The notes beneath the pieces were generated by a model. That model was not told the DNA's origin, did no database searches, and worked only from the letters and a program-made list of their open reading frames with translations. DNA of 63,512 nt, counting the filler, from Dimargaris cristalligena (lineage: Eukaryota), in NCBI GenBank assembly GCA_003614675.1. It is 21 parts of 21 records of this genome, joined end to end, with 100 filler letters (N's around TTAATTAATTAA, not from the genome) between each part and the next. Parts side by side here need not be neighbours in the genome. Positions count along the whole stretch, not along the records: positions 6,053 to 9,009 come from ML004065.1; 20 more parts are not named here. One strand, given 5' to 3'. Shown here in pieces: positions 2,978 through 45,467 of the stretch. The first letter of the stretch is position 1. Each line of letters opens with the position of its first letter. A program made the position numbers and the translations under genes.

Positions 2978-3265
2978 TAACTTATAAGTTCTCTCGATTT
3001 CAATGAGAGAACTTATAAGTTCTGTATTTATTGAGAATGGATTTGTATTTGCTTTGTGGGCTATTTGGTTTAAATTTACTCCTTGCTTTCTAAGTTCATA
3101 AATTAAAGAGCGATATAAATTCACATATTTATCTTCATGTTTTAGCATCGCTCTCAAATAATCGCTCTGTTTTGGAAAACCTAAACTCACTGCTTTTGAG
3201 TGAACTAAATTGAAATCTTCCATTGATAATCTGACATGAATTTCTTTTTCTAATCTATCTTTCAT
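2978..3265 (-). CDS. mobC: Plasmid mobilisation relaxosome accessory protein MobC (3'-truncated at contig end)
   Basis: Ribbon-helix-helix-like N-terminus (IHVRLS...SDYLR) and the MobC motif 'ELRKQGVNLNQIAHKAN'. GGAG lies 8 nt upstream of the ATG at 3265. Confidence 0.88.
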
Positions 3266-3291
3266 TTTCAAAACTCCGTTTTTAAAGGGTT

Positions 3292-3364
3292 CTAGGGCGA
3301 AGCCCTAGCAAGGCACTAACAAGGCATAAACCGTAGGTTTGTGGCTTGGGAGTGTAGCCTTGCT
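3292..3364. promoter_or_regulatory. Putative origin of transfer (oriT) upstream of mobC
   Basis: Hairpin CTAGGGC-GAA-GCCCTAG (3292-3308), inner hairpin AAACC-GTA-GGTTT, and inverted pair AGCAAGGC (3307-3314)/GCCTTGCT (3357-3364). The position directly upstream of mobC is typical of MOBP-type oriT. Confidence 0.55.
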
Positions 3365-3460
3365 TAAAAACCTATTCCTAATATAACGAGGCTTTTAATT
3401 TTGTCAAATTTTAGAAAAGAAGATGATTTTATACATACAAAGAACAAGAAACATAACAAG

Positions 3461-3553
3461 ATTAGATTGAGATTGAGATTGATATGGCGATTAGATTGCG
3501 ATTACTTGTAGATTGAGATTGTATGGCGATTAGATTGCGATTACTTATAGATT
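3461..3553 (+). repeat. Direct repeats: GATT-based short units forming two ~39-bp higher-order copies (iteron-like)
   Basis: TATGGCGATTAGATTGCGATTACTT occurs at 3483 and 3522, embedded in GAGATT/GCGATT/TAGATT units. Confidence 0.85.
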
Positions 3554-3617
3554 AAAATAATATGTAGACAAATATGATATTTATGTATATAAGACATATA
3601 TACAAAAGGAGATTGAT

Positions 3618-3851
3618 ATGAATAAAGGAAAAAAGAAAAGACTTGAAAAAATGAAGAAAAAGCTAATGAAAAAACTAGATAATGGTGAAAATATAAACGA
3701 TAAAGACTTTAATGAATTATTCGGACATGTTGCTTTTTCTGATGACTTTGTAATGACAGAAGAAGACGAAGAAGGGAATTTAATAAACATTGAAACTGGT
3801 GAGATTGTTGGAAATGGTTTTGTTGATTTAGGCATTCTATATACAAAGTAA
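3618..3851 (+). CDS. Small hypothetical plasmid protein (77 aa; basic N-terminus, acidic C-terminus)
   Basis: AGGAG at 3607-3611 precedes ATG 3618; a terminator-like hairpin follows. Confidence 0.6.
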   Translation: MNKGKKKRLEKMKKKLMKKLDNGENINDKDFNELFGHVAFSDDFVMTEEDEEGNLINIETGEIVGNGFVDLGILYTK

Positions 3852-3861
3852 AAGAATAAAT

Positions 3862-3895
3862 AAAAAAAGTCCCATTTCTGGGACTTGATTTTTTT
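3862..3895. terminator. Possible intrinsic terminator or attenuator between the 77-aa ORF and rep
   Basis: Stem-loop AAGTCCCA-TTTC-TGGGACTT (3867-3886) flanked by an A-run and a T-run. Confidence 0.5.
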
Positions 3896-3946
3896 GGCTT
3901 TTTGATTATATTAAGATTGACCGAAATTAAAACAATCAGGAGCCGT

Positions 3947-5626
3947 ATGAGTATATTAAGCCAATTAACTAAAAATGTCAATATAATAGAAGAAGAGAAT
4001 GAAGAATTTTATTTATCTTTTCTAAAAATGATTGAAGAAGAAGAGGAAAAGACAAATAAAAGTGTTTTCCAAGATAGCAGGTTGACGGCTCTTGTTCCTG
4101 AAATTCACAAACCTTTTGTATACTGGATTATAAAAAAGCAATTCTCTGGAAATGATTTTGAGTATTCAAAAACAATTTCTTTGTTCTTTGAGAAATTCAA
4201 TAGTAAATTAAAATCCATTGCAGACGACAATGCTTTTATTGAAAACAAAAGCAAAAAAAGACAACTAGCAAAGAAAAGAAAGCATGCCGTCTTATATTCT
4301 TCTCAATTACTTAAACTCACTGGATTTAATCGTCCAAAAGTTGCAACAAAGGAAATGATTAAATCTTACTGTGAAGAAATGGAAAAGAGAGACGAGTATA
4401 TAAGTTCTTTAAGATTAGTAAATGCCAAAGGTGGAATTACTAGACTTGTTTCAAACGAGCAAAAACAAAAAGAAAAAATTGCTGAAATATATAAGATAAG
4501 TAAATATTTTGAAGAAAGAGCAAAAGACAAAATATTTACATTTTCATTCATAACATTAACTTTACCTAGCTCTTATCATTCAAATCCTTTAAATGGGAAT
4601 TGTTCTTTTGACGGCAAAACTCCACAACAAGCAATAGACCAGATAGGAAACTACTGGAAACTTATTAGAGCGAGATGGTCAAATCTTGGACTGGTCTTTG
4701 GTGAAGATTTATTCGGAATTCAAGTAGTAGAGTGTCAAGGCGATACAACACTTCATTTACATTGCTGTGTTTGGCACCATTACGACGATACAAAGAAAAT
4801 TCATAATGAAGTCTTGGCAGTTCAAAATAGTTCAGAAGAAAAAGTAAACTTTGATATTAGACTAAACAATGGAAAAGCAGGGGCTCCAACATATCTTTTC
4901 AAGTATGTTTTAAAAACTCATACTGACTACAAATCAAATGATAATGCCATTAAGAACATGGCTGTTAGAAATCTATACGGTGTTAGAAGTTATAATTTTT
5001 TTGGGTTGAAAGGAAGTAAGACAAAATTTAATTTCTTGGTTAAGAACTATGGAAGATACAAAAAATCTATTCCAGAAGAAATGAGAATTTGTTTTGGTAG
5101 TGGAGATATGTATGACTTCATTACTAACTATGAAAAATATTTTGAGAATGCTTATCATGGCAAAGGTAAGAACAAAAAACTAATCGGTGTTATATTCAAA
5201 AAAGGAGAGTATGATTTTGATATTCAAAATCTAAATCAAACTTTCACAAAGAAAGCAAACATTATCAATCTAAATGAGATTGTTTTTATAGAGCAAAGAC
5301 AATTCTGTGTCTTTGAAAAGAATTATCAAGGCGAGATTGATAATGTTAAAAATATTAATTTGAGCTTGCCACAATATGCTAATATTAATTCAAGCTTTGA
5401 GAGTGTAAGATATAAACAAGAGCTATATAATCATGAAGTAGATAAAATAATTGATAGCTTTGGTTATGAGAGATATAAAAACAAACAACCAATTAAGAAG
5501 AAAAAGCTTACACCTTCTTTTTTTGAAGGCAATTTATTACAGTTATTCAACATTATTCAAGAAAAACTCGCCCTAACGGGTCAATATTTAAAAAATGATG
5601 AGTTTGATATGGTAGTTTTAGAATAG
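3947..5626 (+). CDS. rep: Rolling-circle replication endonuclease, P2 gpA-like (HUH, two-tyrosine), ~559 aa
   Basis: Motif 1 FITLTLPSSYH, motif 2 VVECQGDTTLHLH, motif 3 YLFKYVLK and downstream GVRSYNFFG are collinear with the P2-type gpA motifs (TxTxPSxYH, EPHHDGTxHWH, YIAKYxSK, IRQFQFxG). AGGAG at 3938-3942 precedes ATG 3947. Confidence 0.85.
   Translation: MSILSQLTKNVNIIEEENEEFYLSFLKMIEEEEEKTNKSVFQDSRLTALVPEIHKPFVYWIIKKQFSGNDFEYSKTISLFFEKFNSKLKSIADDNAFIENKSKKRQLAKKRKHAVLYSSQLLKLTGFNRPKVATKEMIKSYCEEMEKRDEYISSLRLVNAKGGITRLVSNEQKQKEKIAEIYKISKYFEERAKDKIFTFSFITLTLPSSYHSNPLNGNCSFDGKTPQQAIDQIGNYWKLIRARWSNLGLVFGEDLFGIQVVECQGDTTLHLHCCVWHHYDDTKKIHNEVLAVQNSSEEKVNFDIRLNNGKAGAPTYLFKYVLKTHTDYKSNDNAIKNMAVRNLYGVRSYNFFGLKGSKTKFNFLVKNYGRYKKSIPEEMRICFGSGDMYDFITNYEKYFENAYHGKGKNKKLIGVIFKKGEYDFDIQNLNQTFTKKANIINLNEIVFIEQRQFCVFEKNYQGEIDNVKNINLSLPQYANINSSFESVRYKQELYNHEVDKIIDSFGYERYKNKQPIKKKKLTPSFFEGNLLQLFNIIQEKLALTGQYLKNDEFDMVVLE
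5539..5561 (-). promoter_or_regulatory. Candidate double-strand origin/nick site (CTTG-N10-AATAACTGT)
   Basis: The minus strand reads CTTGAATAATGTTGAATAACTGT, with the same spacing as the P2 ori as I recall it (CTCG^GAGTCCTGTC-AATAACTGT) and a phiX174-like CTTG^A nick core. Confidence 0.5.
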
Positions 5627-6968
5627 AAATCAAACAATCAACAAAAAAAGACAAACAATATCTCTAAAAACATAATCTTTTAAGCTAAAAGATAGGATAT
5701 TTTCAACATAATTACCGATTTCTAATCATAGGCGAACATAGGCTATACATCAATAAAACAGCCAGCTTTTTGAGAGATATATTTTCAATAGTAGAAACTT
5801 GGCTAATCGCCAAGTTTAGTAATCAAGAAAAGTAAAGTTTCTCTGAACTACAACCCGAAGGGTTCTAGGTGCTTGTGCTGGTGTAGTGGTTCACTCGGGT
5901 GGGGTAGTGGTGGGGCAAGCAAAAAAAATCGCTCGTAGGGGCTTGTAGAGGTNNNNNNNNNNNNNNNNNNNNNNNNNNNNNNNNNNNNNNNNNNNNTTAA
6001 TTAATTAANNNNNNNNNNNNNNNNNNNNNNNNNNNNNNNNNNNNNNNNNNNNTATTCTCGCATATATTCGCCCATACACGTATTATGTAAAACCTTATAC
6101 AGCTGGTTTGAGTTTCACTCATATGGTTGCACCAAAAGGTCATGCGGGAATTCTCTAGGAGTTCCCCATTTTTATTTCTGTGAAGTCAGGGCGAAAGATC
6201 AATTTAGCCGCCCTGGGGTGCTTCCCGCCAGATTATTGTTTAATGGGGCTATCCTCTAATATGTCAATGTACTCTTTTACGTCAACGTGTATTGGATTCC
6301 CTTCCAGTTAATATATTCATGCGGGTTTTCAGAGCACAAGCGTAATGCGAGGAACTCAAGGCCCCCATGCATCGGGTATTAGTAGAAATATGAGATTTTC
6401 GCCAACTGCGTCGTACAGTCGAATGGGCGATCAAAAGACCCTTCTCAAAGAAGCGCCTTGCTACACAATTATGGAGGGATTGGGCCACAGTATTGCCATT
6501 TCGGCGGCCCTTGCATTAAACGGATTCACGTAAATATCGGGATATTCGAGGGCCCTAATAAGCCACACGAAAAGAATGCGCTTAATCCGCATTTAGTGTA
6601 ACCAACACTTTCCTCTGTTGCAAGGGGTAGGCGAATGACGCGTGTAAACAGGCACCATTTGGACTAGTTAGTGGGTACTGGTCCAATAATGCTATGCCCT
6701 CTACCGCACTTGCCGTCAGATTAGTCGGCTAATTGCCGGTCAGTATCCCCCCTCCAAACCTCGTTCCGCGTATATAACCTCGTCATATGTCCCCCTGCTT
6801 CGCTCTATCAAAGTCTCTCTTTACCGCCAAATTTTAGACCAGTATTCGCCCATCCATTCGGGGGCTAAACTCAATATAATTGTAGCCCGCAACTCCAAAT
6901 TGTTTGCCATAGACCAACCAATTCTATCGATCCCTGTTTCTCACCCGTCCCCTTCCGATTTGTTGACC

Positions 6969-8536
6969 ATGAAGCCGACTCTGACCTCCAGCACCCTACT
7001 AGGCCTAGCCTTGACCCATCTCGCGGCTGGTCATCCCCATCCTATCAACGATAATCACCAAACGGATGGTAAAATTCATTCCAATGCGGTCGAACATCAG
7101 CCCAGTGGCCAATACAAAGGTAGTCCTTCGAACACTATTTTCCAACGCAAAAATCAAATGGTTACTCCATCCTTAAATAGAGCCCCTCTTGAAATTATTC
7201 ATACTATTATGGACGAACTGGAAACGCGAGATTTGGTGCAAATGTCCAAGACCAATTGTTATTTAAAAAGTGTTTACGACACTTACCCCGGCAGCGAAGT
7301 TTTTGTCAAAGTAAGTACATAGTGTACAGAGAATAGTGTAGACTAGGGCCTAAGTCATTCAGCTGATCATCCTGCAGACGGTTTATGAAATAGGGGCATT
7401 GTGATTAAGTTCAATACAGGTGACCGGGGACTTGGCATTTGTAAAGTAATGGCTGCCTTCTTATTCCTAATCGTTAACTAATTGGCAATTACCCTCCAAT
7501 ATTCCAATATACTGTAATCATCCCCATATTTATTGTTCAAAAGTACATGGAAAATGGTGTGGTGCCTATGCTATATGGCAGAAAGGCCAGCTTGGAACAA
7601 TTTCAGTTACTCTTTCCAATGCAGCCAATGGATGCAATCATGGCCCGCGCTTGGAATTTTAATGGCGGGACTATTTCCGGAAGACACCCGGTCCAACATA
7701 CCGATGTCAATGGTGATCCTTTGATAATGCCCCCCGTTACACGCAAAGAGCAAATCGTGGCGGCCATTGAGAAAGAGTGGGAATACCTGGATTATACTCA
7801 GCTGAGTTACTCATACAGGTCAATTCTTTTCCCCTGGCTGTATTATCTGTCGAGTTTATCCGTGAGTGAAATATCCCAACTTTATGGAAAATTTCAGCTT
7901 GCGAATCTTGCTGACATACCAACCGGTGATTTGCAAGCGATGTACAACAGCGACCCGGTCATCAAAAACCTTGGTCAGTCGATCAGTTTAGTTTGGAACG
8001 GAACGGCCCAGGGTTTCTATGTGACCCAAGTCATGATGAGTGTTAGCGCTGTCCTCGCCACTACTGGCCAGTTTGGCAAATTAAGGGAACTATTAGATCG
8101 GCCCAATGACCGGTCGGGGGTTTGGCTGGCAAATACTATCTATTCCCGCCTATTGCTCTTGGAATTCGACGATTCCAACTCCGATCAAGACAGGGAATTG
8201 ATAGCCAAATTCACCACTGACTGCAAATACGCCGGCGCACTGGGGTTCAAAACGGCGGAACGAAAATGCGGGGGCCGTGCTCAGAATGATGGAGTCTCAG
8301 CCAATTTCCTTTACTCCATAACCGCCGGTGGGTTTGTGTATCCGCATCGTGACTCAAGCAATAACCCTAAACTGGCCATTCGAGTTAGCCACTCGGCTGT
8401 TATAAATATTCTCAATGGGAAAAAACGCAGTACCAACAAACTCCCTTGGCTGGACCATACCATTCTTTTGGATCAGCTGCACTTGACCAACTTTCGTAAT
8501 AGTGTGCTACCCCCACAGCCTCCCAACCAAGAGTAA
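6969..8536 (+). CDS. Secreted F-box-like protein, family member A; join(6969..7310,7544..8536), ~444 aa
   Basis: Hydrophobic signal-like start MKPTLTSSTLLGLALTHLAAG; F-box-like LNRAPLEIIHTIMDELETRDLVQMSKTNCYLKSV; phase-0 intron GTAAGT...AAG with a TAACTAAT branch site; 993-nt second exon. Confidence 0.75.
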
Positions 8537-8882
8537 TCGGACTAAAACTTGCTCTGCTTTGATTTTTTTCATTTACATTTTTTCACTTGGTGTCTTTTAA
8601 TTCTTGGAGTTTTTTTTTGAGCTATTTAGTTCCCGGAATCTAGGCTGCTTCACGCCTACTATATATTAGAATAAAATTATATATCCAAAATACTTCTCTT
8701 TGACCCCTTTTCCAGATTTTTAATATCATTTTCTAACTAATACCTTTAATGCATTGGCTATAATGTGTATATCCCCAGCCTAGAATTCGCTGAGTATGTC
8801 AACTTTAGTGCCTTTATAAATAAATTAAACTTGATATTTCTCACATAGACCCATGTTTATTATTGCAGAATTGGTCATGGCA

Positions 8883-9009
8883 TATCCACCCTCCTAATCT
8901 AACCTAAATCCAGACTTAATGATTATCTGCTCTTATTAGGTCTTATAGTGCCATATTAACCCTCCCATGGTCACTCCCAGTACTATGGGATCATCATTTA
9001 TTATATAAC
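8883..9009 (+). mobile_element. Partial (5') copy of the solo-LTR family, cut by contig end
   Basis: Shares 'ccctcccatggtcactcccagtactatgggatc...tatataac' with the copies at 18413 and 56064. Confidence 0.75.
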
Positions 9010-16662: not shown

Positions 16663-17916
16663 ATGCCTTCAATTACGCATGTGGTCCTGTTTGGAATGGG
16701 GTGTGTCGGGTGGATAAGTTACCCTGTGGCCGCCAATCCAATCCATAATAGAGTAAAATCATCGAGAGATGCCTCGTCTCATCAATACCCACCCTACCAG
16801 ACCAACTCTAACCCAGTATTATCCCCGAGCGACCCAGTAGAGGAAATTATGTATTCGGGAAACTACGAGGACAGCTGCCACATTTCCCCCAACCAATTTT
16901 ATGACCAGCTCTGTAATGATGACAATGATGCCCCCCAAACGCTATGGGGGTCGTCGTATTTCACTGACAGTGGAAACCAGATCCCGGGCTCTCCTAGTCC
17001 AATGCGTAACCCTGTGGACGTAGACGTGTATAGTTCTTCGAACCAACAAGGTCAAACTCCCGACGTTACCTCGAAACAACAACTAAAACTGGCCATGTCC
17101 CACCCTCCACTACCGTCGGATCCCCTGCGCCTCAACCAAATCCAGAGTCTCATAAACCATGGTGATGGTTTTTCGGAAGGGAGTTCTTTGGCGATATTTG
17201 CCAATGAGCTGGACCCTGACCACCTTTTTGACCCTAGCTTCATCGCTTGGGTCCAAGCAAAACTGGAGCCAAGCCACACGGCACCGGATGTTGATTTTTC
17301 CGAAGGAAGTTCCGTGAAAAAACCCAACGATCAGGCCGATGTCGGAAATATCCCGGGGACCGCTCCTTTGGAATTAAATGCCAGCGTGGTTGCCAAAGCT
17401 GGGGCGGAAATCAAAGCTCTTTACAAACAACCCATGACACCTATGGAATTTATAGCGGGCTGCCGTGCCGTGTCGACCCTTTTTAAAGGCCAGCGTGAGT
17501 TGTCAACTCAAGACAAATCTTTCCGTCCGAACTACAATCTATTCGCAGGCTTCTATAAAGCCAACAAGAGTACAGCCCAAAGTCAAAAATTGAAAGCCAC
17601 GGTGAGTTCACCTCGTCTGTACGCGGTTTTTGGAGGGCTGGCTAAAAACTTGAAAACCAAACGGTTGCTGTTGAGCTTAGCGCGGGATTCCTCCAAGAAA
17701 ACAATTACTATGCGGATTTTCACCACTAGTGACGGGCACCAGTGCGAGTCCTTGAAAAAAGTAATAGTGCAAAGGAACCAGCAACAATTATTATTTTCAG
17801 TCTATGTTTACGGGTCTGTTGAAGTTTCTATTAGGAGATTGATAAATCAGTGCAGGGCTTTTCGGGGGGACAACGATGATGTGTGCGTATATCATGCCAT
17901 TGAGGAGATATTGTAA
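16663..17916 (+). CDS. Secreted hypothetical protein (417 aa, single exon)
   Basis: Long ORF with signal-like N-terminus (MPSITHVVLFGMGCVGWISYPVAA/NPI), S/P/D-rich middle and basic C-terminal domain. TATAAAAG near 16468 and AATAAA downstream. Confidence 0.7.
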   Translation: MPSITHVVLFGMGCVGWISYPVAANPIHNRVKSSRDASSHQYPPYQTNSNPVLSPSDPVEEIMYSGNYEDSCHISPNQFYDQLCNDDNDAPQTLWGSSYFTDSGNQIPGSPSPMRNPVDVDVYSSSNQQGQTPDVTSKQQLKLAMSHPPLPSDPLRLNQIQSLINHGDGFSEGSSLAIFANELDPDHLFDPSFIAWVQAKLEPSHTAPDVDFSEGSSVKKPNDQADVGNIPGTAPLELNASVVAKAGAEIKALYKQPMTPMEFIAGCRAVSTLFKGQRELSTQDKSFRPNYNLFAGFYKANKSTAQSQKLKATVSSPRLYAVFGGLAKNLKTKRLLLSLARDSSKKTITMRIFTTSDGHQCESLKKVIVQRNQQQLLFSVYVYGSVEVSIRRLINQCRAFRGDNDDVCVYHAIEEIL

Positions 17917-25365: not shown

Positions 25366-27112
25366 TTATTCATTTTGCGGCGCACCCATAATCTGATCCC
25401 AGTTAAAACGATTGGCCAAGCCATCTTTTAATAGAAGCTCATGTGTCTTGTCTTGTGAAAGCCACTGGATCTTGAGTGGGTCCATTTGCTCCAACCTCAG
25501 CATTTTCGTAGCGGTGGGTCGGTGTACCCGGAAGGCCAACTGGGGTTTGCGGTCTTCGGCGGTCTCGCGATAGAAATGAACGTGACCAAACGCACTTACA
25601 TCCTGATACGACCGAATAAGATGGGGTTGCGCAATAGATTGATCGTCTGGAAAGGCCCGGACCGCTTTGGTGAAACCGAATAGGCGGGCCATTGATTGAT
25701 TATAAGATCGATACAGGAGTAAACGTTTTGCCCAAACGTAATGTTCCATGGGACCGTACTCTAACAACAGAAATCCTATAAATTGAGCAATGTCTTGGGA
25801 AAAGAATTGCGAGTTGGGTACAGTTATTTCGGCCAGATCCTTCAGTTTGGTGAACTCCCCCCGGGCGGCCAGAACCGCAATGGCACCCCACAGGGGTTCC
25901 TGAACCACCGCATTGTGCAAGACCCTTTGCGAATCCAATCCGTATTGGGCTTTTACTTCACTGGTCAGCGTACGGATAGATTCGTCCTTATAAAAATCCA
26001 GCGCAGTATATATAGTTTCCAGATCTATTGTACTCTGGTACAGGTTCACTAAGATTTTGTGAATATTAGCAACGGACTGGGTGGCTAGGATCTCGACCAA
26101 CGGGAAAAGGGTCATTCGCTCCCGAGGGTCCAGCTTCTGGTATCGGATATACCCCCATTCGTTCTCGATGGTTTGGAGGTTGGTATGGAATGGCTTTAGG
26201 GTAGTAGCCAGACGATCCCGGAAACTGTTCCATTCCGCTGCACTGTAGACTTTACCTCGTTTATAATATTCACTATTAAACCGGTGGGAGCGTTCCATCC
26301 TATCATTGGCTTCCCTATGATTTCGAAACCAGCTATCTAATAACACGGAGCTCGCCAGCTGAACGGGTAGAAGTCGTTGAATGTCCCGGGAATTAATTGT
26401 GTCATCAATCAGTTGATTCGTTAACTAGTCAAATAAGAGCGGATAATCAAGCAAACATATATATATGGAGTAAGGTATAAAAGCCGTTTGGTTAATTTAG
26501 ATACCAGGGAGATGGGTTTGGTTAATCCACATAACTGCAAGGCGACATCTCAAACGGGACATCAAACAATATAGGGGAGCCAAGTCCCATGTGTCCCCTT
26601 ATACTGCGAACGTACTGGGGTGCAACAGTACCAAATGAATTGCTCCTTGGTGGTGTATGTTCCTACCATTATAAACAGATTCTCTCTAGAATACTTACTT
26701 CTTTAGCGGCTGTTTTCACATCGAAGTTCTTTGCCAACCCATTTAGGGCCCTGCAAGTAACCGAAAGACAGAACCGCTCTTCGCTATTTAAGTCCTTCCC
26801 AATCATATTATTTATTTCCAGGGGAATACCGGAAATTTTGGATAATCCGGTGCCTTGCTGGCTTTTGACGGCATGCGGTTCCTCGTGGCCGGATGCCTCA
26901 CGGCCGTTTCCGGGGTTGGCCCAAAATGAACGTGGTGGTAAATTCAATGGTAGCGAAGCCGATGGACTGGCGGGAAGACTGCTCGGGGTTTCGTCGGCCA
27001 CGGCGGATCTCTCGTTGGACGGTTCCCAGTCCATACTAGACCCGGGAAGGCAGGCGATGGAGTGGAGCAGGGCAAGACTCAAAAGAGGGATGGATACGAA
27101 GTGACGCGTCAT
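25366..27112 (-). CDS. Secreted F-box-like protein, family member B; exons 27112..26699 and 26358..25366, ~468 aa
   Basis: Signal-like MTRHFVSIPLLSLALLHSIAC/LP; F-box-like ISGIPLEINNMIGKDLNSEERFCLSVTCRALNGLA; phase-0 intron GTAAGT...TTCAG; 993-nt second exon homologous to member A. Confidence 0.8.
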
Positions 27113-27431
27113 TGTTAGCGGGGGCGATACAGCGTAATGGGTGGAGTGTAATTGTATACGTGTGAGTGGTAGATGAAGGCAGGTCGGCGGAAGTCGGACA
27201 GTAAATAATCGTTAAGTTCGAAATTCACCATGAAAACACTCACTGGGATGGAATATTCAAACTAAAAAAATAGCGGGGGGGGGGAGGGAGTGACCACGTC
27301 GCGAGGTTTAGTATATGTACCAAATTANNNNNNNNNNNNNNNNNNNNNNNNNNNNNNNNNNNNNNNNNNNNTTAATTAATTAANNNNNNNNNNNNNNNNN
27401 NNNNNNNNNNNNNNNNNNNNNNNNNNNGCCA

Positions 27432-27996
27432 CGCCCGTCTAGTCCCAATGCAATCCCTTCCGCTGGAAATACGAGTCTCCGAGTACATCGTTTCCCTTCG
27501 AATCGTTCCAATGAAATAGAGTCGGCAGAGGACCCTGATAAAAAATACATAAAGGGGGTGCCGATCAAAAGGCATTGAGAGAACGCACAGGACAGGAAAA
27601 TTCCGTGGAGCTAGGGGTATCTGCCCTCGCTCAATAACGCGCTGTCAGCCCAATAAAAATGATAGAACGATAATTAGCAGGGGGGTCTATTGGGTACATG
27701 GTGGGTGGTTTTCTGGTGAATCTCTCTGCCGTATGTGAAGATTATCCTTGTACAAAGACGGTTGGATCGTTGGGCGGAGGCTATGGGTTGATTGTTGACC
27801 GACCATGAGTCCAATCGGATACTGGGGATATATTCTTTGTTTCCGATTGCCCTCCTCCTACTCCTTGGCTGATGCTTACATCACTAAATCGACCGTTCCT
27901 GTAATCCCGAAATAGAGGGGAGGGGGAATAATAATAAAAGCACCCCTTTCATAATTGGATCAACAAGGGTTGCTTTGTTAACTCTAGGCGACTTTG
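27432..27996 (+). repeat. Left arm of a 565-bp inverted repeat (partner 29794-30358)
   Basis: CGCCCGTCTAGTCCC...GGCGACTTTG is the reverse complement of 29794-30358; mirrored ORFs appear at both ends in the ORF track. Confidence 0.95.
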
Positions 27997-28476: not shown

Positions 28477-28734
28477 ATGCGTTTCGCTATTATCACTCTC
28501 ACTACGCTGACCGCTATTGCCTCGGTTCTCGCCCACTCGCTCGATAGCCATGAACACCGCACTCCCATTAGCCAACATCTTGTGCGTCGCACACCCCTAA
28601 ATAACAAAAGCATGTTGGGGGGAACAACCATCGAACAGCGGAAGATTGCCTTAAGTCAAAGTGTCAATAAAGAGGTTACAAAGACCCCCGTAAAGGTCAA
28701 TCCTGCTAAAAATCGGAGTCCTGGCAGTTCTTAA
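28477..28734 (+). CDS. Small secreted protein (85 aa) with a putative Kex2 site
   Basis: Signal MRFAIITLTTLTAIASVLA, pro-region ending HLVRR, then a Lys-rich mature part. ATCATCATG context and TATATAAA upstream. Confidence 0.6.
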   Translation: MRFAIITLTTLTAIASVLAHSLDSHEHRTPISQHLVRRTPLNNKSMLGGTTIEQRKIALSQSVNKEVTKTPVKVNPAKNRSPGSS

Positions 28735-29793: not shown

Positions 29794-30358
29794 CAAAGTC
29801 GCCTAGAGTTAACAAAGCAACCCTTGTTGATCCAATTATGAAAGGGGTGCTTTTATTATTATTCCCCCTCCCCTCTATTTCGGGATTACAGGAACGGTCG
29901 ATTTAGTGATGTAAGCATCAGCCAAGGAGTAGGAGGAGGGCAATCGGAAACAAAGAATATATCCCCAGTATCCGATTGGACTCATGGTCGGTCAACAATC
30001 AACCCATAGCCTCCGCCCAACGATCCAACCGTCTTTGTACAAGGATAATCTTCACATACGGCAGAGAGATTCACCAGAAAACCACCCACCATGTACCCAA
30101 TAGACCCCCCTGCTAATTATCGTTCTATCATTTTTATTGGGCTGACAGCGCGTTATTGAGCGAGGGCAGATACCCCTAGCTCCACGGAATTTTCCTGTCC
30201 TGTGCGTTCTCTCAATGCCTTTTGATCGGCACCCCCTTTATGTATTTTTTATCAGGGTCCTCTGCCGACTCTATTTCATTGGAACGATTCGAAGGGAAAC
30301 GATGTACTCGGAGACTCGTATTTCCAGCGGAAGGGATTGCATTGGGACTAGACGGGCG
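29794..30358 (-). repeat. Right arm of the 565-bp inverted repeat
   Basis: Reverse complement of 27432-27996. Confidence 0.95.
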
Positions 30359-33300
30359 CCGTCCNNNNNNNNNNNNNNNNNNNNNNNNNNNNNNNNNNNN
30401 NNNNNNNNTTAATTAATTAANNNNNNNNNNNNNNNNNNNNNNNNNNNNNNNNNNNNNNNNNNNNCGCTGGTAGCGCAGTATCTAACATTACATATTGCTT
30501 AATCATATCGCACACGATACTAATTGTCCATAACCGCCATCTATAAGTCATAAGCCAATATCTAGTAAATCATTATAAACCTAAATTGGCCTCCATCTGC
30601 GGCTTGTAATTATGATCTATTCGGTTTTGCAATCATCGGAATCCAATAATTATTTCAGTAACATTGCTGGCTGTGGTGGTAATATAAAAGGTGTTGCACA
30701 AGTAAAAGTATTGGCCCACATGTGACTTGCCACTAGATATCGGTTAACACAGAGTTGGGTTTGGGGATGTAAATAAGGCCCACCTGCCAGTAGTGAAATT
30801 GGAACCTGACTGGGAAAACCATTGAGGATAGCTGGGTAGTTTAGATAAGGGAAGGCTGGATATGCAGGTAGAGTATAGCAGTTACAAGTAGATCAATTTG
30901 GAAAGAACTGCAGCTAATAAAATCTATATATTTTTAACTTCCGCCCTGCCTTAGCTATGCAGAAATAAATTGATTTACTCAAATAGTAGAGGTAAACCCT
31001 GAGTACATCCCGTAATTTGACTTACCAATATGCTAATCCAATAACTTTACTATAAATACCCAATGGTGTTCCTCCTTAATATATCAGTCAATTATCTAAT
31101 GTCTTAAAATATCTGTTAACAATAAATATATTCTACACTTTGTGTGTATTAATAATGATGCTTATATGATCATTAAACCCTCATAGTTTAGCTGAAATTT
31201 GAGCCAACTCTATAAGATTATAAGTGATACATGTGTAGGAAAATAGATGGGATACTTATTTTTAACCAGTAGTATATACCTTATATAACATATTTTTCAC
31301 TATATAGTCTGTGTGAACTTCTCCCATTAGGTAATTTAATTGGATATTAGTGTATATAGATGGCTGATTATCTGGTCTATTTGGATGGAATGGAACTTAA
31401 TATCTCCTTTACACTTAATGATCATAATTAGTATAGTTGAAATGGTGCCCCATAACCCCAGGTAATATATGCTATAGTCAGGTATAATATGTTCTGGGGC
31501 TGAATAAATTACCAGTCACTCTTGTGATTTACAATAGTACCCACTATAAGCAAATAGGTTGACCATCAGGAGCATTGTACTAACTACTGCCAATGCATCT
31601 GCTTTGTCATACACATGTAATACTAGGTAATGCAGAATGTCCATTGAAATAGCCCAGGAAGACCCGGAAATGGAAGAGTGCATAATTCGTTCCGATGCAA
31701 TTAAGGCCACTTTAGGCAACACTGGTGTTCCTCCAAGCTGAATCAAATTGTCAAATTGGCAGACTAGTTGAGGGCCAGTGTATCACACTATTATTACAGT
31801 TATGAGGGAGGGCAAAAAGGAGGCAAAGAAGGAATGGCTTATTTTAGTATACTGTGGTAATTGCCCCAAGCATTACCTAGAAGGCCAAGGCTGGTATTTT
31901 AATATTCAGTACCATTATTCTTGTGTGGGCTATGTAGCCCGTAACAAAGTCCATTGCTACTTAAATGGCAATAAAATCATGAGTGCGCCGTATAACTCTG
32001 ACGCATTGCAGCAGCTAGCAGGTATTATTATGGAAAATCAATAACCCTGTTTTAAATAAATCTTTTATATGCACATCGTATTTGTAGAGGTAACTTACAT
32101 AAGCCTAATGGGGTATATATCGGCAGTGGGGTGTCGGTCTCGTTTATTTAAAAAGCGGTAAATATGAGGGTTTTGAAAAAGAGTAGTGCAAAGTTCGATA
32201 TTATTAAGAAGCATTGGAAGTTCTAGTAAATTGAGGGGATTAAGAAGCTTGGCTGATGGTTATTTATATGGCCAATATTAATCCAGAAATAGGTGTAAGT
32301 AGGCGTCCGTAAAACATGGTTAAGGAACCCTCGGGGGCCAAATTCCTTGTTGTACATCAACATCTCGCCCATGGGATGGTGGTGGGTAACTAGTAGAGGT
32401 TAGCCCAGGGTTATTAAACTTCATTGACCAGGTTAATGTAAGAACAGACTCTAGTCGAGTTGTAGATGGCTATAGTGTACCCTAGAAATCTAAAGGTATG
32501 TCCAGGGCTGGGGCCACAGATATATCAACATAATCAAGGGGAGTTGAATGTTTGTGGTAGCCAGGGTTGGTCCCTGAAATGGTCGAAAGTGTAGCAACAC
32601 CCTCTATAGCCCTATTAATGTGGTAACCATAGTCAGTGCCTGTCATAACCTAAAAGTGCCTTTGCTTATATTCTCTTGATTTTACCTATTAAAGCAAACG
32701 TTTTTATGCTCATTAACTGAAAATAAGCGTATATCAACGCTATATTTCATCTCCCTCATATTTCTATTCCCCGTGCCAATTAACGGTTTATAATCCTATA
32801 TCCCCTCTGTTTATATTCACCATATTCCCCGCCATTTCGTACCAACTCTGGGTAATCAACTTCGCCCACGCACTTACTGTTTAGCCCAGAACCACATTTT
32901 CCCCACTGCCGCCTCGTCTAGTTTTCAATCCCTCCTCACTACTTCAATCAATGCCGACATGTGTATCTAGTTTGCTGCTGTGCTGCTATTATCGGCCATT
33001 CTGGAACTCCAGTTCCTCGCTATTGCCCATAATTAAGGAATCCATAAATATTTCAAATGTAAGTTTGGACAATGTTTCAGATATAACTCTGGCCTCCCCT
33101 TTGGTAGATTTCAGCAAAGGCCGTGTATATTTCCCAAAATGTGGGTATCCAATGCACTATTATTGCAAAAGCCAACACATTTGTTGTAAGGTGCAACATG
33201 GACCACAGGATATCACAGCCAGCCTCTTGGGTTGGTAATTAGCTTGGCTTATGAAATGAAATAGGGCCATTGGCCAGGCCTCGAACTCAACAAGTTGCGA

Positions 33301-39535: not shown

Positions 39536-40170
39536 TACACCGCCCCTGTTCCACCCCATCACCATTGGTATCCAATGTGCCGGACAAGTAAGTGGAATGT
39601 GTTGGTTATACTGCTATTATTTATACAATTTATTATCAATTACTATTACTATTACTGACACTATATTTATAGAATTATTTGACACTAATATTGTATGCCT
39701 CTAAACATTATATATAATAACTATAGCTCCTAATTTTAGAGCTAGTGGCTCGCCTAGCTGTTTCCGGTTATTTACACCTGGTAAAGATGGCCGAAGAGTC
39801 CCCGGCCATCAATGATCTACCAGGTGTTGAATTTCCACTGGCCTTCAAATATCCGCCAGTTGTTAAATTGCTGCTGCTAATCAAGTGGCTATTGCCCATC
39901 GAACCGTCGCTGCCGCCAGTTGAATTGTCATTGCTGCCCGTCGAATCCCAACTGACCACCGATTTCCTATCGACCATCAAAATCCCGTCATCTGCCGAAT
40001 TCCAGCCGGCCATCAGGTTTCAGCCAGCCGTCGAGTTCCTGCCGGCCACTGAAATCATATCAGCTTCCGAACCCTTACCAGCACCAGAATCCCAGCCGGC
40101 CGTAGAATACCTACCGCCCATCGAATCCCAGCCGGCCATTAAGTTCCTGCCGGCTACTAAAACCATGTCA
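39536..40170 (+). repeat. Segment duplicated, with divergence, at 44813-45465
   Basis: Both begin TACACCGCCCCTGTTCCACCCC and encode near-identical ORF starts ([20 protein letters not shown]). Confidence 0.9.
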
Positions 40171-42087
40171 GCTGCCGAACCCCTACCAGCACCCGATTTT
40201 CTACTGCCCATCGAATCCCAGCCGACCATCGAATCCCAGCCGGCCATTAAGTTCCTGCCGGCTACTAAAACCATGTCAGCTGCCGAACCCCTACCAGCAC
40301 CCGATTTTCTACTGCCCATCGAATCCCAGCCGACCATCGAATCCCAGCCGGCCATTAAGTTCCTGCCGGCTACTAAAACCATGTCAGTTGCCGAACCCCT
40401 ACCAGCACCCGATTTTCTACTGCCCGTCGAATCCCAGCCGGCCATCGAATTCCTACCAGCCACCAAAGTCCAGTCAGCCGTTGAACCCCTACCAGCAGCC
40501 CCAGCTGTTACAGGAAATCGACACCATATAACAAAACCACCGGTCCCCTGGAAAAACCGGGCCAGTCCGTCCACCGACACCCACCCCGCCCAGAAAGCGG
40601 CACCGACCCCAACTACAGCTGGATATCGAAGCCTCGCTACAAAACCGCCGGTCCCCCAGCAAACCCGGGTCGGTCTATCTACTGACCTCCACCCTGCCCA
40701 GCAAGCGGCGCCGACACTGACACCAAATACCAACACCAACACACACCAACACCGACACCCGACACCACTGACATCAACATCAACTCCACTGACACCGATA
40801 CTACTGACACCCGATACCAACACTGATAACAACACCCGACACCGATACCAACACTACCAACACCGACACCGATACCAACACTACCGATGGTACCACGACT
40901 TCCGACAGTTCCTACACCGACTCCACCAACACCCGGCACTGGCACTACTGATACCCAATACCAACACTGACACACACCGACACCCGACACCGCTGACATC
41001 AACATCAACTCCACCGAAACCGATACTACTGACACCCGATACCAACACTGATATCAACACCCGACACCGATACCAACACTACCAACACCGACACCGATAC
41101 CAACACTACCGATGGTACCACGACTTCCGACAGTTCCTACACCGACTCCACCAACACCCGGCACTGGCACTACTGATACCCAATACCAACACTGACACAC
41201 ACCGACACCCGACACCGCTGACATCAACATCAACTCCACCGAAACCGATACTACTGACACCCGATACCAACACTGATAACAACACCCGACACCGATACCA
41301 ACACTACCAACACCGACACCGATACCAACACTACCGATGGTACCACTACTACCGACGGTACCTACACCGACTCCACCAACACCCGGCACTGGTACTACTG
41401 ATACCCAATACCAATACCAACACTGACACACACCGACACCGACACCCGACACCGCTGACATCAACATCAACTCCACCGACACCGATACTACTGACACCCG
41501 ATACCAACACTGATAACAACACCCGACACCGATACCAACACTACCAACACCGACACCGATACCAACACTACCGATGGTACCACTACTACCGACGGTACCT
41601 ACACCGACTCCACCAACACCCGGCACTGGTACTACTGATACCCAATACCAACACTGACACCGACACCGACACCGACACCAACACCAACACCAACACCGAC
41701 ACCGACACCGACACTGACACCAACATCGACACCAACACCGACACTGACACCAACATCGACACCAACACCGACACCGACGCTGACACCAACACCGACACCA
41801 ACACTAACACCGACACTGACACCAACATCGACACCGACACCAACACCGATACCAACACCAACACTGACACTGACACCAACACCAACATTGACACTGCCGA
41901 CACTGACACTGACACTGCCGATACCGATACCGACACCGACACCGACACCGACAACACCACCAATACTGACATCAACACCAACACCAACGCCAACACCAAC
42001 ACCCGATGCCGACACCGACACCGACACCGACGCCGACGCCGACGCCGACACCGAAACCGAAACCGACACCGAGACCGACTCCACTGA
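39745..42087 (+). CDS. 780-codon low-complexity tandem-repeat ORF (coding status uncertain)
   Basis: Open frame built of 108-bp repeats (40120, 40228, 40336), 225/225/237-bp repeats (40771, 40996, 41221, 41458) and an ACACCR hexamer array. Confidence 0.3.
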
Positions 42088-44812: not shown

Positions 44813-45467
44813 TACACCGCCCCTGTTCCACCCCATCACCATTGGTATCCAATGTGCCGGACAAGTAAGTGGAATGTTTTGATTTTACTACTATTACTTT
44901 TACAATTTATTATCGATTACTATTACTATTAATGTCACTATATTTATAGAATTACTTGACACTAATATTGAATGCCTCTAAATATTATATATAATAACTC
45001 TAGCTCCTAATTTTCGAGCTAGTGGCTCGCCTAGCTGTTTCCGGTTATTTACACCTGGCAAAGATGGCCGAAGAGTCCCCGGCCACCAATGACCTACTAG
45101 GCGCTGAATTTCCGCTGGCCTTCAAATATCTATCAGTTATTAAATTGCTGCTGCTAATCAAGTGGCCATTTCCCATCGAATCGTCGCTGCCGCCAGTTGA
45201 ATTGTTGTTGCCGCCTGTCGAATTAATGCTGCCCGTCAAATCCCAACCGGCCATCAATTTCCTATCGACCATCGAAATCCTGTCAGCTGCCGAATTCCAG
45301 CCGGCCATCAGGTTTCAGCCGGCCGTCGAGTTCCTGCCAGCCACTGAAATCATATCAGCTGCCGAACCCTTACCAGCACCAGAATCCCAGCCGGCCGTAG
45401 AATACCTACCGCCCATCGAATCCCACCCGGCCATTGAGTTCCTGCCGGCTACTAAAACCATGTCATA
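44813..45467 (+). repeat. Paralogous copy of 39536-40170, truncated at contig end
   Basis: Collinear, with substitutions and an in-frame insertion. Confidence 0.9.

Follow-up and report, generated by a model that had tools for sequence, protein, structure and literature searches.

Signal-like leaders and F-box-like motifs in a fast-diverging protein family of Dimargaris cristalligena: candidate host-directed effectors of a mycoparasitic fungus

Results

A two-exon gene on a small contig

The 63512 bases of DNA analysed here (the window) are the small-contig tail of the Dimargaris cristalligena assembly: 21 contigs of 2.9-3.0 kb each, ordered by falling length and joined through spacers of the form N44-TTAATTAATTAA-N44. 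Our subject is a gene on the third of these contigs (6053-9009; 2957 bp, 44% G+C), whose deposited protein is P0001 (BJ085DRAFT_40248; named Dimargaris cristalligena). We read it as a two-exon gene on the + strand, 6969-8536, predicted to encode a protein of 444 amino acids (aa) in which a signal-like leader is followed by a polar linker, an F-box-like motif and a domain of 330 aa (Table 1). The Dimargaritales are described as fungal parasites that use an appressorium and a biotrophic haustorium (PMC9866270), and D. cristalligena itself was sequenced as a biotrophic mycoparasite (PMC6784888).

The frame of the first exon is open from 6690 to 6968 without a methionine, and past the upstream stop no in-frame ATG precedes that at 6969. 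Homology to the paralog P0003 (449 aa) supports the predicted 7310/7544 splice: P0003 is 33% identical to exon 1, and aligns with exon 2 without a break over 7583-8518 (36% identity, E 5e-59), leaving a length difference of 3 residues in the region of the exon junction. The deposited model P0001 (326 aa) has an N-terminus identical to our exon 1, which it joins to an acceptor at 7897/7898, thereby omitting 118 in-frame codons. These codons hold stretches that are conserved across the family, such as FPMQPMDAIMA and EW.YLDY, and because P0001 drops them, the 7310/7544 splice would appear to be the better model.

Could the gene nevertheless be an artefact of assembly or annotation, or a decaying, functionless pseudogene on a repeat-flanked small contig? 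The contig is just 2957 bp long with repeats at its ends, the deposited gene model departs from the one proposed here, and a second assembly of the organism holds no protein that clusters with P0001 at 90% identity or more (a cluster of one member). We nonetheless consider this very improbable: neither exon is interrupted by a stop, the splice sites are canonical, the intron position is common to a second copy in the window (copy B), the 330-codon exon retains the positions conserved in the family, and the full length lies within 5 residues of that of P0003 (444 vs 449 aa).

Table 1. Features of the gene, its contig and the second family member in the window (positions along the window)
Feature	Position	Strand	Basis and remarks
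Dispersed repeat, left end of contig 3	6053..6124	.	92% identity to contig 12, 35084-35155; blastn among the 21 contigs
Possible TATA box, TATATAA	6771..6777	+	Read from sequence; ~190 nt upstream of the ATG
Exon 1, 114 codons (leader, linker, F-box-like motif)	6969..7310	+	First in-frame ATG; GTAAGT donor after a complete codon
Signal-peptide-like leader, aa 1-21	6969..7031	+	Hydropathy; aligns with paralog leaders; putative cleavage before HPHP
Polar variable linker, aa 22-69 (~48 aa)	7032..7175	+	Alignment; hydropathy; opens with conserved [RH]P.P
F-box-like motif, aa 70-108, core PLEIIHTIMDELETRDLVQMS	7176..7292	+	PF00646 sub-threshold; P0003 above cut-off at the aligned position
Phase-0 intron, 233 nt, GTAAGT...AAAG	7311..7543	+	Position matches the copy B intron
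Exon 2, 330 codons + TAA (uncharacterised helical domain)	7544..8536	+	Without Pfam family; AlphaFold2 models
Dispersed repeat, right end of contig 3	8907..9009	.	77-82% identity to contigs 5, 7 and 19; blastn among the 21 contigs
Copy B, second window member, 490 aa (= P0005)	25366..27112	-	Contig 9; tblastn, family HMM
Copy B exon 1	26699..27112	-
Copy B phase-0 intron, GTAAGT...AG	26425..26698	-
Copy B exon 2	25366..26424	-

Within the N-terminal half, conservation peaks in the leader

The predicted protein opens with MKPTLTSSTLLGLALTHLAAG, a basic start followed by a hydrophobic core and small residues, and then HPHP. We called signal peptides by hand, looking for a basic n-region, an h-region of ~7-15 residues and small residues at positions -3/-1, and the leader divides accordingly into MKP, TLTSSTLLGLALTHL and AAG ahead of HPHP; 'signal peptide' is, in this sense, solely a manual call for a putative feature. 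The 12-residue Kyte-Doolittle maximum of this leader is 1.64, a value equalled by 665 of 20000 shuffles of exon 1. As the gene's own leader is only modest, the case for a signal peptide rests on its paralogs: in 16 further gene models that include an N-terminal region, copy B among them, the maximum lies at 2.15-2.71 and is again followed by [RH]P.P. Their shared layout runs from M-[KR]-x through a core (TLLGLAL, for example) to small residues and [RH]P.P (often RPQP). Across an alignment of nine members, no N-terminal segment is as conserved as the leader, whose mean pairwise identity of 0.47 compares with 0.17 for the linker and 0.26 for both the F-box region and the C-terminal domain. At ~12-14 residues, the hydrophobic core falls short of the length that a membrane anchor requires.

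The linker that follows is modelled without regular structure in P0003 (AlphaFold2; predicted local distance difference test, pLDDT, ~30). In most members its first residues, directly after the predicted cleavage site, are [RH]P.P, mostly RPQP (aa 22-25 in our gene); this motif could belong to the cleavage region or act as a signal for processing or uptake. The whole protein has 3 cysteines and one N-glycosylation sequon, which would fit a protein that works in a cytosol.

Much of what has been described so far agrees with the sequence-only reading from which this work started. That reading had proposed a gene at this locus with a phase-0 intron after an F-box-like motif, which the homology-backed splice bears out; its linker of ~45 aa is indeed present and measures ~48 aa; and its signal-like N-terminus holds up as modest in this gene alone (1.64) and stronger in the 16 paralog models.

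It is worth considering whether the hydrophobic N-terminus is a working signal for the endoplasmic reticulum (ER) at all. The family could instead be made up of endogenous, lineage-specific F-box receptors of the parasite's own SCF (Skp1-cullin-F-box) ubiquitin ligase, either cytosolic or tethered to a membrane, or with an N-terminus that is a product of the gene models. It is common for eukaryotic lineages to expand F-box proteins that carry private C-terminal domains, F-box function requires Skp1, which is cytosolic or nuclear, and the leader of our gene is only moderately hydrophobic. On the other hand, the N-terminus is laid out as a cleavable signal (a basic start, a core of 12-14 residues, small residues and [RH]P.P), no other part of the N-terminal half is as well conserved across 16 models from two independently annotated assemblies, its core falls short of a transmembrane anchor, and neither window copy has an in-frame ATG upstream. 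Endogenous receptors strike us as distinctly unlikely.

A fast-diverging family confined to one fungus

A second member of the family, copy B, lies on contig 9. Its exon translations, taken in order, reproduce the deposited sequence of P0005, and it is 26% identical to the gene on contig 3. A family profile hidden Markov model (HMM), run over all 1077 open reading frames (ORFs) of at least 30 aa in the window, matched solely these two genes, and a scan for a hydrophobic N-terminus followed by an LPxE-type motif picked out the same two loci among 23 signal-like ORFs.

Beyond the window, we searched a profile of the C-terminal domain (alignment A1) against 1.84 billion representative proteins. 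It matched 28 proteins at E<=0.001, 23 at E<=1e-10 and 15 at E<=1e-30; 27 of the 28 are named Dimargaris cristalligena, and the 28th is P0005, i.e. copy B. The matches span two assemblies (locus tags BJ085DRAFT and H4R33) and include 23 distinct BJ085DRAFT gene models which, with copy B, bring the count to about two dozen family genes, several of them modelled with truncated N-termini or as fragments on short contigs. In a maximum-likelihood tree of 21 rows, from which P0037 (a very long branch) and P0018 (under half of the columns filled) were omitted, the deepest split, supported at 100/99, divides the family into two groups, and the end branches have a median length of 0.8 changes per site. 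The gene on contig 3 is sister to P0002 (45% identity, 97/95 support), and copy B to P0030. Some members are clustered in the genome, since P0019 and P0027 share one contig of 28276 bp with locus tags three apart. To judge from these sequences, the family is one of fast-diverging paralogs confined to D. cristalligena.

No other protein joins P0001 in its cluster at 90% identity (1 member, 1 contig), the nearest H4R33 protein being P0002, at 52% identity, and the clusters of P0002, P0003, P0023 and P0026 have no BJ085DRAFT partner. These unpaired clusters may reflect genes that are present in some strains and absent from others, or incomplete assembly or annotation.

These searches revise the sequence-only reading in one respect and strengthen it in others. 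It had placed the same architecture on two other contigs; both the HMM over the 1077 ORFs and the motif scan put it on just one, contig 9. Its suggested check, a profile HMM of the exon 2 domain, returned the 28 matches in 1.84 billion proteins, all D. cristalligena or copy B. Of its expanded fungal effector family, the expansion stands; restriction to one fungus (28 profile matches), itself a haustorial mycoparasite, gives a context where delivery of an effector would make sense. The F-box call is weak.

A C-terminal domain matching no known family or solved fold

Exon 2 has no Pfam family at E<=10 besides chance rows, either in our gene or in the paralogs tested, and there is no leucine-rich repeat (LRR) family among these matches. 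Profiles of the C-terminal domain and of the full-length family gave chance-level matches only against the sequences of the PDB, and the ESM Atlas returned no usable match for exon 2. Candidate relatives from the PDB sequence searches (uteroglobin fusions, a designed repeat and VP0806) were set aside as chance-level matches.

An AlphaFold2 model of exon 2 from our gene, built from 5 rows, is weak (mean pLDDT 60.3, predicted template modelling score 0.68). That of P0003, built from 33 rows, reaches pLDDT 80-95 over residues ~190-430, and predicts a C-terminal domain of ~14 helices with a three-stranded sheet (197-201, 383-387 and 393-400, which correspond to 79-83, 265-269 and 275-282 in the exon 2 numbering of our gene). 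The strands of this sheet bear the most conserved motifs of the family (W79/Y81, G263-R269 and L277-V281, exon 2 numbering). Conserved positions in the domain are chiefly hydrophobic, together with E207 and R280, and nothing among them resembles a catalytic set.

Foldseek gave 0 matches at E<=0.001 for either model against 350,542 PDB chains, with best E-values of 0.61 (exon 2 model) and 0.48 (P0003 model) and template modelling (TM) scores of 0.1-0.2. Generic helical repeats topped the rows at these TM scores. With 0 matches for either model, the predicted fold of the domain appears to be without a solved counterpart visible to these searches. The ~330-aa domain that the sequence-only reading did not recognise therefore stays without a Pfam, PDB sequence or Foldseek match, and the checks run place it in no known housekeeping family.

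An F-box-like motif at one aligned position

F-box motifs are recognised by an LPxE[IL] start followed by spaced hydrophobic residues. In P0003, residues 73-107 pass the PF00646 threshold with 25.0 bits, and other paralogs stay below the Pfam cut-offs: P0008 at 12.3 bits, P0042 at 17.2 and 14.1, and P0044 at 17.8 and 11.8. The matches of these four and of our gene all fall in the same alignment columns. Within the motif, P73 and E75 are invariant in 10/10 rows of the alignment, with the consensus LxxLPxEIxxxIxxxLxxxxLxxLS. By position, then, the motif of our gene would be homologous to the above-threshold F-box of P0003, and it shares the LPxE[IL] start and spaced hydrophobic residues. UniRef labels five models 'F-box domain-containing' (P0001, P0031, P0032, P0034 and P0042), and, when Pfam and UniRef calls are counted together, an F-box is called in 8 of the 15 paralogs that possess an N-terminal region. 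There is no Pfam F-box match in copy B, P0012/31, P0013/32, P0017/34, P0027, P0030 or P0041.

The model of P0003 places short helices at residues 75-81, 97-103 and 108-112, at pLDDT ~30, and there is no F-box chain among the Foldseek PDB matches listed for it. For P0003, the ESM Atlas returned only leads under 0.9, with F-box clusters ranked 22 and 28 at a score of 0.79. When exon 1 was searched against longer proteins, its sole match was the deposited model of the gene itself.

Members that bear the motif occupy both sides of the deepest split in the tree (100/99 support), and for this reason the combination of leader and F-box-like motif is probably ancestral; judged by sequence, a degenerate F-box was probably present at the origin of the family.

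Other features of the window

Two ORFs were tried as third copies of the family and rejected. The first, on contig 17 (49093-50454, - strand; 454 aa, MSSTSSTPFL...), is without a leader and has only a chance-level match to PF24758 (F-box-associated LRR, E 0.086), and may belong to the ordinary cytosolic proteins of F-box/LRR type. The second, on contig 6 (16525-17913), has a signal-like start and belongs to a different family. Within it, the intron-less ORF at 16663-17913 (+ strand) encodes 417 aa with the signal-like N-terminus MPSITHVVLFGMGCVGWISYPVAANP and no Pfam family, and may be another lineage-specific secreted protein, unrelated to the F-box-like family.

Contig 2 (2978-5952) has 30% G+C vs ~44% elsewhere. 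Its ORF at 3860-5623 (+ strand) encodes 588 aa with a rolling-circle replication endonuclease domain of the P2 gpA type (PF05840, E 6.6e-14), and the only relatives found are distant phage proteins, at 26-32% identity over one third of the protein. The contig probably stems from contamination of the fungal assembly by a bacterium, phage or plasmid, or from a mobile element. On contig 10, one sequence occurs at both ends (27428-27644 and 30146-30364) in inverted orientation, with identical 70-aa ORF translations on opposite strands, an arrangement to be explained either by a terminal inverted repeat or by a chimera formed in amplification. Between the ends, at 28477, lies a small ORF whose start is signal-like (MRFAIITLTTLTAIASVLA...). 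On contig 14, an ORF of 786 aa (39727-42084, + strand) has a long Thr-Pro repeat tail and no Pfam family, and its N-terminal part recurs, nearly identical (MAEESPA.NDL...), on contig 15 at 45004-45465 (+ strand); there are five blastn matches between the two contigs.

Discussion

What might a fungus that parasitises other fungi do with two dozen diverging proteins of this kind? Several features were observed directly: the structure of the gene, an architecture shared among its paralogs, the restriction of the family to one species, its expansion and divergence, and a C-terminal domain of no known family or fold. In the reading we favour, these proteins would form a family of host-directed F-box effectors. 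The protein would enter the secretory pathway via a cleavable N-terminal signal peptide, be released at the interface between parasite and host and then be taken up into the host fungus, where its degenerate F-box would dock onto the host's Skp1 and the family-specific helical C-terminal domain would present a host protein to the host's SCF ubiquitin ligase. We hold this hijacking of the SCF tentatively, at somewhat short of an even chance. That the family belongs to effectors of some kind is suggested by a leader that is better conserved than the mature protein, a variable linker, a domain that is private to the lineage and diverging, repeat-rich surroundings and an owner that is a haustorial biotroph; this is a plausible fit with the lifestyle of D. 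cristalligena. The F-box-like motif, for its part, would suggest by analogy a mechanism like that of SSGP-71 in the Hessian fly or of bacterial RipG.

Several observations weigh against this reading, and most of them concern the F-box. In our gene the match to PF00646 reaches 13.9 bits (E=0.053, residues 73-100), below the gathering cut-off of 20.5, and that to PF12937 reaches 11.7 bits, with a cut-off of 24.3; the F-box-like motif of the sequence-only reading is upheld in its position, homologous to the passing F-box of P0003, and falls short in its score (13.9 vs 20.5 bits). Just one of the 15 paralogs with an N-terminal region lies above a Pfam F-box cut-off, seven have no F-box call by Pfam or UniRef, and P0016/P0033 and P0022 keep the leader without any recognisable F-box motif. 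Searches of PDB sequences with the family profile, P0003 and exon 1 returned zero F-box proteins, and in the 33-row AlphaFold2 model of P0003 residues 1-114, F-box included, stand at pLDDT ~30. The leader of our gene is, moreover, the weakest and least hydrophobic of the family (1.64; 3.3% of shuffles). Finally, the parasite's own Skp1 is expected to closely resemble that of its host, and an F-box alone is therefore uninformative about the cell in which it acts.

Alternatively, these could be proteins of the secretory pathway, whether secreted, on the cell surface or at the haustorial interface, in which an inert, degenerate F-box-like helical motif binds no Skp1, with a C-terminal domain that acts outside the cytosol, for example at the parasite-host interface. 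Such proteins would be expected to conserve their leader family-wide, as these do, and to show the kind of record just described, with a single paralog of 15 past the Pfam cut-off, PDB sequence searches without an F-box match and an F-box region at pLDDT ~30; P0016/P0033 and P0022, which hold leader and C-terminal domain without the motif, and the concentration of the most conserved residues in the C-terminal domain point the same way. It is harder to see why an inert motif should give F-box or F-box-like Pfam matches in five paralogs at one aligned position, one of them above the cut-off, or earn five models the F-box label of UniRef, or be retained across the deepest split of a very divergent family. 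Few cysteines and a single sequon would also be unusual for an extracellular protein of 440 aa. We regard an inert motif as unlikely, albeit less so than the endogenous receptors considered above.

Returning to host-directed F-box effectors, how would these compare with systems that are already known? Legionella AnkB and Agrobacterium VirF are bacterial F-box effectors. Together with the RipG/GALA proteins of Ralstonia, they resemble the mechanism proposed here in that a pathogen F-box is plugged, as proposed or shown, into the host's SCF, and differ from it in relying on type III/IV secretion and not on an ER signal peptide, in having C-termini of LRR or ankyrin repeats, and in their unrelated sequences. 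Ralstonia RipG7, of the RipG/GALA group, binds SKP1-like proteins of Arabidopsis, as reported in the paper on SSGP-71 (PMC4617103). That paper describes SSGP-71 of the Hessian fly (Mayetiola destructor) as a secreted F-box-LRR family that binds host Skp proteins: an expanded secreted family of a eukaryotic parasite, with an N-terminal F-box, a C-terminal domain that binds targets, and some members without an F-box (PMC4617103). With its overall logic alike, SSGP-71 would be a precedent for the mechanism proposed in Dimargaris. The likeness ends there: the C-terminus of SSGP-71 consists of LRRs, whereas the Dimargaris domain has no LRR or other Pfam family and is predicted to consist of helices and a three-stranded sheet; the Hessian fly attacks a plant and not a fungus; there is no sequence relationship; and Skp binding, demonstrated for SSGP-71, would be a prediction for the Dimargaris family.

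Closer to home, NLS_30765 of Rhizophagus clarus is a predicted secreted protein with an F-box-like PF12937 domain, and interference with host signalling has been proposed for it computationally (PMC4746824). It is a single candidate from a plant symbiont and not an expanded family, it does not share the C-terminal domain, and it is likewise predicted only. Canonical F-box receptors (PF00646/PF12937) share with the Dimargaris proteins an LPxE[IL] start, spaced hydrophobic residues and a position N-terminal to a larger, putative binding domain. They differ in that our gene is sub-threshold and carries a signal-type leader ahead of the motif, and in that its C-terminal domain is not a WD40, LRR, Kelch or F-box-associated (FBA) domain.

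A comparative study from 2021 states that supporting material for roles of F-box proteins in eukaryotic pathogenicity is lacking (PMC8146833), and the words 'secreted', 'effector', 'ubiquitin' and 'signal peptide' are all absent from the main text of the D. cristalligena genome paper (PMC6784888). Our literature search, which covered the main texts of a limited collection, found no paper on a secreted F-box family in a mycoparasite, and none that pairs D. cristalligena with F-box proteins or cites BJ085DRAFT tags. To our knowledge, next to nothing has been learned about the means of host control in haustorial mycoparasites of the early-diverging fungi.

Taken to its furthest extent, the favoured reading would have D. 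cristalligena pass a private and rapidly diversifying set of F-box proteins, secreted via the ER, through its haustoria into host fungi, Mucorales or others, where a new helical fold for receiving substrates would be coupled to the SCF of the host; we offer this version as speculation that is doubtful as a whole. The accompanying ideas, that the leader and [RH]P.P together form part of a signal for export and uptake, and that this would be the first fungal hijack by F-box mimicry, and the first of one fungus by another, we likewise think unlikely, if worth stating.

If these proteins are delivered and bind Skp1, then F-box mimicry, known from bacteria and a gall midge, would extend to the fungi. 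The family would in that case provide a handle on host targets in the parasitism of fungus by fungus, and a new substrate-binding fold for the SCF repertoire. And should the F-box be inert, the family would still be a lineage-specific secreted protein fold worth solving.

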